Assembly: GCA_000995965.1 (NCBI GenBank)
Contig: LBYD01000002.1
Span: 199,889-263,888, forward strand
Length of the DNA stretch: 64,000 bases
Direction of reading: 5' to 3'
Source of the DNA: Candidatus Moranbacteria bacterium GW2011_GWC2_40_12
GTDB lineage: Bacteria; Patescibacteriota; Minisyncoccia; Moranbacterales; UBA11712
The translations under genes and the position numbers were made by a program. A model generated the notes under the pieces. That model made no database searches, was not told the DNA's origin, and was given only the letters and a program-made list of their open reading frames with translations. Below, piece by piece: positions 56,754 through 58,054 of this stretch. Each line of letters opens with the position of its first letter. Position 1 is the first letter of the stretch.

Positions 56754-56827
56754 GGGCTTATCGTATAGTGGTAATACGCCGCATTCGCATTGCGGAAACG
56801 CGAGTTCGATTCTCGCTAAGTCCACCA
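56754..56827 (+). tRNA. tRNA-Ala (anticodon CGC) with encoded CCA
   Basis: G3.U70; anticodon arm ccgca-ttCGCat-tgcgg; T-arm gcgag-ttcgatt-ctcgc; 3' ...tccaCCA. Confidence 0.8.
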
Positions 56828-56891
56828 AACAGAAAAATGGAGAGGTGCCAGAGTGGTAGATATAATGCTTCTCGTATGGTATGATTGTTGC

Positions 56892-57887
56892 ATGAGAGTT
56901 AGATTATCAAAAAAGAGCTTAGAAATCTTGTTTAATACAGTAGAAGCCAAATATAAAAGGTGGGTGACTATTGCTAATAAGAATAAAGTTTCCGTGAGAA
57001 CATTGAGCGATTGGAGAAAAGGAGAAATATCGATGCCCCTTTTAGTTTTTCGGAAAATACTAGCGGATTGTGATTTAAAAGAAGAAAAAGTTTCCTTTAC
57101 AATTTTATCTGATTTTTGGCACACTAAGGATGCCGGCAGAAAAGGAGCCGCGGCGGCAATGAAATTATACGGAAATTTTGGAACTCCCGAGGGGAGGAAA
57201 TTAGGTGGACAGAGATCCATTGCCACTCACAAAAAGAGGCAAACAGCCTTTAAAACTTTGAAGCCCATCGCGAAGCCGAAACATTCGAAGAAATTAGCAG
57301 AATTGCTCGGAATTTTTGTTGGTGATGGACATTTATCTGATTACCAGGCTAGTGTTTGCACCAATTCAAAGACTGACAAAGAACATGCAATGTTGACCTC
57401 AAAATTGATTAAAAGTTTATTTCGAGTCCCTGTTTCTTTAAGGGAACTAAAAAATGAAAACACGATTATCGTTGTCGCATCTTCAGTGTCTGTCGTCAAA
57501 TTTCTCAATAAACAGGGCATGCCGCAAGGAAATAAATTAAAAAACAATCTGACTGTTCCAGGATGGATAATAAAAAAAAGAACTTATCAAAAAGCTTTTC
57601 TGCGAGGATTGTTTGATACGGATGGCTGTATATATTTAGATAAACATAAAATTAATAAGAAACGATACAATCACTTGGGATGGGCGGTTACAAGTTACGC
57701 AGAAAAACTGAGAAAAGATGTAATGGAAATTCTTGCAAATCTTGGATATTCTCCAACCAACAGAGATACTCAAAAATCAGTTTATTTAAGAAAGCAAAAA
57801 GAAATCGCAAAATATTTTCGAGAAATTGGCACGAATAATTCAAAACATTTGACCCGATACAGGAAATTTATAAAATTAACTCAATAA
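56892..57887 (+). CDS. free-standing double-motif LAGLIDADG homing endonuclease
   Basis: Start chosen at MRVRLSKKS; two LAGLIDADG motifs (LGIFVGDGHL and LRGLFDTDGCI); located between tRNA-Ala and tRNA-Ser, not inside an intron. Confidence 0.8.
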   Translation: MRVRLSKKSLEILFNTVEAKYKRWVTIANKNKVSVRTLSDWRKGEISMPLLVFRKILADCDLKEEKVSFTILSDFWHTKDAGRKGAAAAMKLYGNFGTPEGRKLGGQRSIATHKKRQTAFKTLKPIAKPKHSKKLAELLGIFVGDGHLSDYQASVCTNSKTDKEHAMLTSKLIKSLFRVPVSLRELKNENTIIVVASSVSVVKFLNKQGMPQGNKLKNNLTVPGWIIKKRTYQKAFLRGLFDTDGCIYLDKHKINKKRYNHLGWAVTSYAEKLRKDVMEILANLGYSPTNRDTQKSVYLRKQKEIAKYFREIGTNNSKHLTRYRKFIKLTQ

Positions 57888-57966
57888 TAAATTCGACACG
57901 GAGTGTTCTGAAGGGCAAGGTACTGTGTCGTCCCGCACCAAAAATAAATATTCAAAAGATTTCAAT

Positions 57967-58054
57967 GGAGGTGTGCGAGAGTTGGCTGAATCGGGCAGTC
58001 TCGAAAACTGCTGTGCCGGAAACGGCACCGAAGGTTCGAATCCTTCCACCTCCG
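57967..58054 (+). tRNA. tRNA-Ser (anticodon CGA), class II
   Basis: acceptor ggaggtg/cacctcc, anticodon arm gcagt-ctCGAaa-actgc, long variable arm gtgcc-ggaaac-ggcac, T-arm gaagg-ttcgaat-ccttc. Confidence 0.8.

Follow-up and report, generated by a model that had tools for sequence, protein, structure and literature searches.

A 64,000-nt stretch of the genome of Candidatus Moranbacteria bacterium GW2011_GWC2_40_12 (contig LBYD01000002.1, positions 199,889 to 263,888 of the forward strand; the window, in what follows) carries a free-standing homing endonuclease gene (HEG) of the double-motif LAGLIDADG type between a tRNA-Ala(CGC) and a tRNA-Ser(CGA) gene. The architecture observed is a relic tRNA 5′ half, a promoter made from that relic, the HEG, and a complete tRNA of the same identity. 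This HEG belongs to a large, uncurated family of Patescibacteria (the CPR) and DPANN archaea; we consider it likely that the homing target is a tRNA gene and that the tRNA is rebuilt at the DNA level, without splicing. The HEG is intact; relic, promoter, open reading frame (ORF) and tRNA follow one another in that order; the linkage is specific for the isoacceptor; and the HEG is present in some related genomes and absent from others. Loci of relatives are designated below by L-numbers.

The endonuclease gene and its protein

A sequence-only reading of the window had described a double-motif LAGLIDADG ORF between tRNA-Ala(CGC) and tRNA-Ser(CGA), and Pfam and alignment bear this out for an ORF of 331 aa (Table 1). 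The best Pfam match of the protein is LAGLIDADG_3 (E = 7.4e-13), with LAGLIDADG_WhiA weaker (E = 5e-7). An alternative, longer frame starts from a GTG at 56853, and its extra residues are non-conserved. In an alignment of 30 homologs, the catalytic residues D145 and D244 are invariant, as are G144, D145, G146 and H147 around motif 1 and F241, D242, T243, D244 and G245 around motif 2. Both motifs and their catalytic acidic residues are thus intact, as had been claimed, and not lost.

An AlphaFold2 model built on the same alignment has a mean pLDDT of 88.9, with the core above 90. The predicted fold is the pseudo-dimeric α-β-β-α-β-β-α arrangement expected of single-chain LAGLIDADG enzymes. The best solved-structure matches found by Foldseek are I-Tsp061I (E = 7.8e-13, TM 0.78 on the target), the TliVMA intein endonuclease and I-DmoI; WhiA and the bI3 maturase are also among the structural matches. 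An N-terminal helical, helix-turn-helix (HTH)-like extension of about 75–125 aa is followed by a monomeric two-domain LAGLIDADG core, residues ~130–331, and a short form of the family lacks the N-terminal helical domain. With two motifs in one chain, an acidic residue closing each motif, and this fold, the window ORF reads as an intact single-chain double-motif LAGLIDADG endonuclease gene, for which a cleavage function is predicted.

Linkage of the family to single tRNA isoacceptors

A word-indexed search with the window protein gave 338 matches, most of about 330 aa and 45–59% identical, and a library clustered at 50% identity yielded 657 clusters at E ≤ 1e-30. Scanning one genome per species (185,579 species genomes) found 382 relatives, of which 80 loci were fetched; with a single protein as the query, the genome scan returned no relatives, and an alignment-based query was needed. 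Databases label the family members “hypothetical” or as generic LAGLIDADG proteins, and no NCBIfam model covers the family of the window protein.

Each of the 28 close loci has the HEG immediately in front of a tRNA-Ser of the same orientation, with the anticodon CGA in 27 and TGA in 1. When the window and L081 are added, tRNA-Ser(CGA) stands directly 3′ of the HEG in 29 of 30 loci, which come from many Patescibacteria lineages. The upstream neighbour of the Ser-family HEG is variable (tRNA-Ala, an opposite-strand tRNA-Glu, tRNA-Ser(GGA), or none), while the tRNA partner is constant. A sister Patescibacteria subfamily, 31–37% identical, has the HEG 5′ of tRNA-Tyr(GTA) in 18 loci, and the remaining 2 end at a contig edge. 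Among the DPANN archaeal relatives, the HEG is found 5′ of tRNA-Gly(CCC/TCC), Ala(GGC), Arg(GCG/TCG), Leu(TAA) or Gln(TTG), or convergent with an opposite-strand tRNA. The linked tRNAs have distinctive D-arms and anticodon stems.

The ORF and its tRNA commonly share sequence. Overlaps of 14–56 nt occur in 19 of the 28 Ser-family loci, the last codons and the stop being the first nucleotides of the tRNA, and a further 8 ORFs stop 0–10 nt short of the tRNA. The common C-terminus, GEVPKWS*, corresponds to GGAGAGGTACCGAAGTGGTCATAA, that is, to the tRNA acceptor strand and D-arm, with the stop codon inside the D-loop. The Tyr subfamily shows the overlap in 15 of 18 loci, with the tail ASVG* (GCGTCGGTCGGATAG).

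Among 20 loci scanned, the HEG is convergent with the tRNA in the DPANN loci L042, L051, L055, L057, L058, L064 and L066. The tRNA is often tRNA-Gly, and some are intron-bearing; they start 0–100 nt from the ORF 3′ end (30–100 nt in six loci, with a 2-nt overlap in L058).

A displaced tRNA 5′ half and the promoter on it

Upstream of the window HEG lies relic A, the 5′ half of a tRNA-Ser(CGA)-type gene, which comprises the acceptor strand, the D-arm and a degenerate anticodon loop, CTCGTAT (56871–56877). It starts 11 nt past the end of tRNA-Ala (56827), where the resident tRNA-Ser begins in HEG-less syntenic loci, and a homologous relic occupies the corresponding place in L081. The sequence-only reading overlooked relic A, and also a second, truncated tRNA-Ser past the ORF (relic B, below). 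It called the HEG intergenic, which holds insofar as no intron or intein surrounds the ORF; on its two sides, however, the HEG has a tRNA 5′ half that has been displaced and a copy of the tRNA that it would have brought along.

Across 432,000 positions in 30 loci, we searched for the opening 20 nt of linked tRNA-Ser genes with a position weight matrix (PWM). Outside tRNAs, the five highest-scoring matches (25.1–17.5 bits), and 9 of the highest 30, all sit some 50 nt ahead of the ATG in coding-strand orientation; relic A, with 24.0 bits, ranks second. In a joint alignment, the relics of 12 loci run gap-free against genuine tRNA-Ser(CGA) from nt 1 to about 40, including the D-loop GG and the anticodon loop. 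This loop is CTCGAAA in short-form loci and CTCGTAT in long-form loci, and similarity ends right past it. By this alignment, the end of the relic falls at or beside canonical positions 37/38, the classical tRNA intron site. A model of insertion in the D-loop was dropped, since the alignment carries the relic colinearly on to the anticodon loop. A composite D-loop/anticodon motif at tRNA spacing occurs 14 times at the relic position versus 8 times elsewhere in 433 kb.

Relics cognate to the linked tRNA recur in other subfamilies. Those of the Tyr family have a Tyr-like acceptor and D-arm; L034 and L054 hold CTTCCAAAG, a decayed Gly(CCC) anticodon loop; and D-arm relics for Ala, Gly(TCC) and Arg are found in L060, L063 and L067. 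Because of this recurrence, we take the displaced 5′ half to be an intrinsic part of the element.

In the tRNA-Tyr-linked L036, the upstream relic (3800–3862) holds ACTCGAGA, nearer to the anticodon loop of Ser(CGA) than to that of Tyr. A past switch of target, from tRNA-Ser to tRNA-Tyr, may have left this trace; its spacing is off by 3 nt, and the related L059 is without the feature.

A sigma-70-like promoter lies on relic A (Table 1). The D-loop sequence of the family, GGTTGA(CT), provides the −35 box, the spacer contains the relic anticodon loop, and the ATG follows the −10 box by 6–8 nt (6 nt in the window). Homologous promoters are TTGACT-17-TATAAT in L002 (11/12), TTGACT-17-TAGAAT in L001 and TTGATA-17-TATAAT in L081 (11/12); against TTGACT/TTGATA in these relatives, the TAGATA of the window is a weakened −35 box. 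Because the ATG stands so close behind the −10 box, the sequences suggest that the HEG mRNA is leaderless. No conserved promoter precedes the linked tRNA across the family, and the tRNA is therefore probably co-transcribed with the HEG. In the manner of Seg/Mob-like genes, the HEG has a conserved promoter of its own, lies outside any intron or intein, and adjoins an invariant tRNA partner. A candidate internal tRNA promoter at the ORF 3′ end (window 57849–57876) was rejected, as it is not conserved in the family.

Presence and absence among Moranbacteria

The gene next upstream of tRNA-Ala encodes a 99-aa protein with many homologs in Moranbacteria; these homologs, whose contigs keep the gene order, led to the empty sites. 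The tRNA-Ala(CGC) gene is retained in syntenic relatives with and without the HEG (L081, L089–L092). The HEG is lacking in L089 (neighbour identity 87%), where tRNA-Ala(CGC) is followed after 34 nt by tRNA-Ser(CGA), and in L091 (67%), where tRNA-Ala, tRNA-Val(CAC) and tRNA-Ser(CGA) lie back to back. It is also lacking in L090 (83%), with a truncated tRNA-Ser relic and then a complete tRNA-Ser, and in L092 (66%), where a D-arm fragment very like relic A, AGAGAGATGCCGAAGCGGTTGAA, lies 55 nt before the tRNA. On the P0153 contig (82%), the gene table, our only source there, lists no LAGLIDADG gene in the 2.5 kb that follow the neighbour gene, and L088 (85%) has an assembly gap at the site. In L081/L082 (65%), by contrast with these, a HEG 79% identical to that of the window is present, and relic A occupies the corresponding place. 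In the window species, the HEG and the same neighbourhood are found in all 24 contigs read, and a metagenome search with a DNA pattern for empty sites (tRNA-Ala end plus tRNA-Ser start) returned only the window species with its HEG. A 115-aa ORF between tRNA-Ala and tRNA-Ser in L092 was considered as a HEG remnant and ruled out.

Since syntenic sites differ in HEG content, the HEG is sporadic among related genomes. Degenerate copies exist as well: reading frames are broken in L016, L028 and L046, and L090 and L092 bear scars. Sporadic occurrence at a conserved site, scars and broken copies point to a homing element, not to a conserved host gene. The proposal of the sequence-only reading that this is a mobile free-standing endonuclease targeting a tRNA-linked site is supported by the strict tRNA-Ser(CGA) linkage, the presence/absence pattern, the decayed copies and the conserved catalytic residues, cleavage itself being a prediction.

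In L091 a large serine recombinase gene (Resolvase/Recombinase/Zn_ribbon_recom; 3433–4500, minus strand) lies about 375 nt downstream of tRNA-Ser(CGA), which suggests that a different mobile element integrates into this tRNA cluster as well.

The remodelled copy in the window

Since 24 of 24 contigs share its neighbourhood, the element is fixed in the window species, and it is fixed in a remodelled form. In L081 the linked tRNA-Ser(CGA) starts 8 nt past the ORF. The window has relic B, which aligns with the L081 tRNA with a score of 43 over 30 columns (27 identical, 2 mismatches, one 1-nt indel) and is cut off where the anticodon loop begins. The 3′ half of this truncated tRNA is found nowhere in the window, and no 3′-half relic was found downstream of linked tRNAs in the family. 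The complete tRNA-Ser(CGA) of the window is, by alignment, of the resident Moranbacteria type, closest to that of the HEG-less L090, and not of the HEG-linked type. With the linked tRNA truncated and a resident-type tRNA-Ser downstream, the ORF therefore stops 78 nt before the tRNA, without overlap, and the window is the outlier of the Ser family. The flanking tRNA genes given by the sequence-only reading, including the encoded CCA, were recovered by ARAGORN and Rfam; tRNA-Ala(CGC) ends 64 nt before the HEG ATG, and tRNA-Ser(CGA) begins the said 78 nt past its stop.

Junctions similar to the one behind relic B precede other replaced tRNA genes of the window genome. Between the tRNA-Ser position and MazG, where synteny resumes, the window has about 1.1 kb that is extra relative to L081 (58056–59106). 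It includes two ORFs (Table 1) and, after the second of them, short repeats of the ATTCGTAA type at 59045–59098.

Table 1. Features of the HEG locus, in coordinates of the window
Feature	Position	Strand	Details
tRNA-Ala(CGC), encoded CCA	56754..56827	+	ARAGORN; Rfam tRNA, 66.1 bits
Relic A, 5′ half of tRNA-Ser(CGA)-type gene	56839..56877	+	GGAGAGGTGCCAGAGTGGTAGATATAATGCTTCTCGTAT; PWM scan, joint alignment
Sigma-70-like promoter on relic A	56857..56885	+	−35 TAGATA (tRNA D-loop), 17-nt spacer, TG-extended −10 TATGAT
HEG, double-motif LAGLIDADG, free-standing	56892..57887	+	ATG start, 331 aa
LAGLIDADG motif 1, LLGIFVGDGHL	57303..57335	+	Catalytic D145 codon, 57324-57326
LAGLIDADG motif 2, LRGLFDTDGCI	57600..57632	+	Catalytic D244 codon, 57621-57623
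Relic B, truncated remnant of originally linked tRNA-Ser(CGA)	57900..57929	+	Corresponds to nt 5-33 of intact L081 linked tRNA
Junction filler	57930..57965	+	Lineage-specific motif CCCGCACCA (57932-57940), then A/T-rich sequence
tRNA-Ser(CGA), complete, functional copy today	57966..58055	+	ARAGORN; Rfam
Extra ORF without L081 counterpart	58158-58637		159 aa, no family
Extra ORF without L081 counterpart	58630-59034		134 aa, weak P-II-like match

A proposed mechanism and its difficulties

How might an endonuclease gene come to lie between half a tRNA gene and a whole one? We propose that the enzyme cuts HEG-less tRNA-Ser(CGA) alleles in or near the anticodon stem-loop, because the subfamilies are anticodon-specific and relic homology ends at about 37/38. 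Double-strand-break repair would then copy the cassette from the HEG-bearing allele, with two stretches of homology as arms, the relic tRNA 5′ half on the left and the 3′ part of the tRNA on the right. Promoter, ORF and a replacement 5′ part would arrive together, and in practice the linked tRNA would be co-converted as a whole: by alignment, the linked tRNA of L081 differs over its whole length from the resident-type tRNA-Ser of HEG-less relatives, as co-conversion would predict. A functional tRNA would thus be rebuilt in DNA, and no intron or splicing would be required. In the overlapping versions, RNase P processing would remove the stop codon of the ORF, and this would limit enzyme production. 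An intron-like origin of the element is possible, since the canonical tRNA intron position coincides with, or adjoins, the end of the relic. A broader and distinctly more tentative generalization is that widespread CPR/DPANN cassettes invade tRNA genes at or next to 37/38, carry a replacement 5′ half or whole tRNA, and leave orphan halves that are recycled as promoters.

Several points weigh against homing into tRNA genes as set out here. The complete adjoining tRNA still holds the presumed target, so immunity through variants of the linked tRNA must be assumed. In the window species, the HEG is fixed beside a resident-type tRNA-Ser that has evidently been left undestroyed, and the enzyme may therefore be repressed, inactive or specific for another allele. 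The relics are short and degenerate: when each tRNA was compared with its own upstream region by Smith-Waterman, locus by locus, p ≤ 0.05 was reached in only 9 of 61, and the family PWM scan and joint alignment were used in its place. Conservation of the relics could partly reflect their promoter function, and, as relics move with the element, they are no proof of an independent insertion at each site. Many archaeal relatives are convergent to the tRNA, with no relic detectable on the 5′ side of the ORF. Lastly, the HEG-less relatives compared are a handful, L088 with its gap among them.

Alternative explanations

The sequence-only reading had also offered the remnant of a lost intron: the ORF would once have lain in a group I or archaeal-type intron of the tRNA-Ser gene and would now be stranded and immobile. 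Such an intron would sit where the relic homology stops, at or next to 37/38; among solved structures, I-Tsp061I and I-DmoI, both encoded in archaeal introns, come closest, and the window genome does have a group I intron, in tRNA-Phe. A search for a group I intron core flanking the ORF, however, found no Intron_gpI match in 56300–58500, where no RNA family but tRNA is significant in Rfam even at E ≤ 10, and in 20 related loci only tRNAs, and no group I intron core, reach the Rfam gathering threshold. No 3′-half exon of an archaeal bulge-helix-bulge intron follows the ORF or the tRNA; a complete tRNA stands there instead, and the ARAGORN intron search joins relic A to nothing sensible. An intein is not indicated either, as the window protein has no Hint domain and its own ATG after a promoter, and its flanks are tRNA genes. 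Moreover, the intron-less layout, with the ORF fused to a complete tRNA, is conserved over hundreds of members, the ORF is intact, and its presence varies between relatives. The absence of an intron core and the complete tRNA after the ORF speak against an intron remnant as the present-day state, and we regard this reading as highly improbable. It is only slightly easier to believe, and still very unlikely, that the window copy is a fixed, decaying selfish gene without activity, surrounded by tRNA relics that stem from separate, lineage-specific tRNA-gene turnover. Its own linked tRNA is indeed truncated and replaced, its −35 box is weakened, its presence in all contigs of the species leaves no empty target, and 5′ relics with complete tRNAs occur at tRNA-Pro, Arg, Leu and Phe without an endonuclease gene. 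Against this, the ORF is full length with all family-invariant residues, the canonical arrangement is preserved in the L081 copy, which is 79% identical, and relic A is homologous to relics of distant members, which makes it part of the element and not of local turnover.

A further rival is domestication: a vertically inherited host factor might act on tRNA-Ser/Tyr genes as a WhiA-like transcription regulator, or serve as a pre-tRNA chaperone or maturase. The very uniform length and 45–59% identity across distant CPR lineages would fit such a factor, as would the conserved N-terminal helical/HTH-like domain and GNFGTPEGRRKGG motif, the fixation of the HEG in all contigs of the window species, and the structural matches to WhiA and the bI3 maturase; the upstream relic could then be an operator. 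But both catalytic Asp residues are invariant, unlike in WhiA or maturase-only proteins, syntenic close relatives keep tRNA-Ala and tRNA-Ser(CGA) without the HEG, and broken copies exist. In addition, the upstream neighbour varies and the tRNA partner does not, and there are merely 382 relatives in 185,579 species genomes. A WhiA-like domesticated DNA-binding protein in particular was rejected: besides keeping the catalytic Asp residues and being missing in close relatives, the window protein has its extra domain at the N-terminus rather than an HTH at the C-terminus, and its score against the WhiA model TIGR00647 is 26.1 bits, below the cut-off of 44.1. Domestication is thus unlikely in our view, and homing of a free-standing HEG into tRNA genes is the explanation that we prefer.

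Other tRNA-gene rearrangements

The group I intron that the sequence-only reading saw elsewhere in the window is real: with an Rfam score of 57 bits at 35969–36264, it interrupts tRNA-Phe(GAA) (35947–36315). It is 296 nt long and lies in the anticodon loop, and ARAGORN finds the gene only with the intron search. An exact 16-nt copy of the tRNA-Phe 5′ end (GCCGGGCTAGCTCAGT, 35859–35874) lies 72 nt upstream and is followed by a hairpin, CCCGCCAGAGGCGG.

Nested tRNA-Pro genes occupy 54852–55088. Two 5′ halves (54852–54881 and 54900–54930), each ending at the start of the anticodon loop, precede CCCGCC.. or CGCGCCCCGCACCA; then come a complete tRNA-Pro(CGG) (54949–55021) and an orphan 3′ half (55047–55088, ending ..TGTCCCGACCA), the acceptor strand of which pairs with the second 5′ half. 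At 48356–48398, just before the real tRNA-Arg (48415–48487), there is a degenerate tRNA-Arg(CCT) copy with a 6-nt D-loop deletion and a divergent T-arm. The 3′ part of tRNA-Leu(TAG) is found a second time at 34230–34271, 75 nt past the real tRNA-Leu (34072–34155).

The motif CCCCGCACCA and its variants gave 20 matches at ≤1 mismatch versus 7.9 expected. Sites directly 5′ of replaced tRNA genes are at 34060, 34173(−), 54934 and 57932 in the window, at 2296 in L081 and at 4500–4535 in L090; some form inverted repeats (34173–34224). The motif may be REP-like (repetitive extragenic palindrome), or it may mark the end of a small cassette that replaces tRNA genes. It is missing from all loci outside the Moranbacteria lineage and, being thus confined, is not counted as part of the HEG element. 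In L081 two tRNA 5′ fragments (2260–2355), each ending ..GCATTTTCACCC(C)GC(A)CCA, precede tRNA-Ala(CGC), and a 104-nt GC-rich structured insert (2437–2540), not present in the window, lies between tRNA-Ala and relic A.

Comparison with known systems

Introns, inteins and the intergenic regions of phages are the known settings of homing endonucleases. I-Ssp6803I is a PD-(D/E)XK enzyme of a self-splicing intron that targets the anticodon region of tRNA-fMet; Bonocora and Shub reportedly described it in 2001 as the endonuclease of a group I intron in cyanobacterial tRNA-fMet. The window family is like it in its presumed anticodon-region target and unlike it in that I-Ssp6803I lies in an intron, with no duplicated tRNA half.

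The archaeal introns of I-DmoI and I-Tsp061I are located in rRNA genes. These two enzymes (PDB 2vs7 and PDB 2dch, respectively; the title of the 2dch entry gives the archaeal-intron origin of I-Tsp061I) are the closest to the window protein in structure, with a single-chain, double-motif, two-domain core. They are intron-encoded; the window protein, in contrast, stands free of any intron, is linked to tRNA genes and carries an additional domain at its N-terminus, and identity is about 18%.

The closest functional analogue is SegB of phage T4, a free-standing GIY-YIG homing endonuclease encoded in the T4 tRNA gene cluster, the site of which includes the conserved T-ψ-C stem-loop motif; as the available part of that paper describes, homing spreads the SegB gene together with neighbouring tRNA genes (PMC2330249). 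Both are free-standing endonucleases among tRNA genes, SegB with a tRNA motif in its site. SegB differs in being a GIY-YIG enzyme of a phage with the T-ψ-C motif, while the window family is LAGLIDADG, with each subfamily tied to one anticodon. The same part of PMC2330249 describes no displaced tRNA 5′ half, ORF–tRNA overlap or relic promoter for SegB.

Closest in host are the LAGLIDADG genes within insertion sequences or introns of CPR 16S and 23S rRNA genes, which are removed from the transcript (PMC11270868). They, too, are mobile elements of the same superfamily in stable-RNA genes. The host gene of the window family is instead a tRNA gene, which duplication rather than excision would restore; the text of PMC11270868 mentions tRNA 0 times. 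The closest mechanistic frame is intronless or collaborative homing of free-standing endonucleases, such as T-even Seg/Mob and F-CphI/psbA, in which the HEG-less allele is cut near the insertion point and repaired with co-conversion of the flanks (reviewed in PMC3984707). In the known intronless cases, the HEG lies between genes, or an intron gives immunity; here, the cassette lies within a gene copy and supplies the replacement copy.

If the proposed mechanism is correct, gene-part duplication would be, next to RNA and protein splicing, a third way for a selfish endonuclease to occupy an essential gene harmlessly. The architecture, family-wide and in two domains of life, would be a DNA-level substitute for splicing that yields orphan tRNA 5′ halves at the classical intron position. 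It would then explain some of the tRNA gene fragments and rearrangements in CPR genomes, and it would open a route from mobile-element insertion at 37/38 to orphan or free tRNA halves, which bears on the debated origin of split tRNA genes and of the 37/38 intron site in small-genome archaea. The family would also offer naturally diverse meganuclease scaffolds with predictable tRNA-gene targets.

Neither our literature searches nor the curated family libraries turned up a description of a tRNA-linked LAGLIDADG family in CPR/DPANN. None of the systems compared, as far as their available descriptions go, shows a displaced gene half used as a promoter or an ORF that ends inside the accompanying tRNA. 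Thus, what is known is the free-standing homing endonuclease; what is new is a family tied to tRNA isoacceptors, with an ORF that overlaps its tRNA and a promoter made from half of a tRNA gene.

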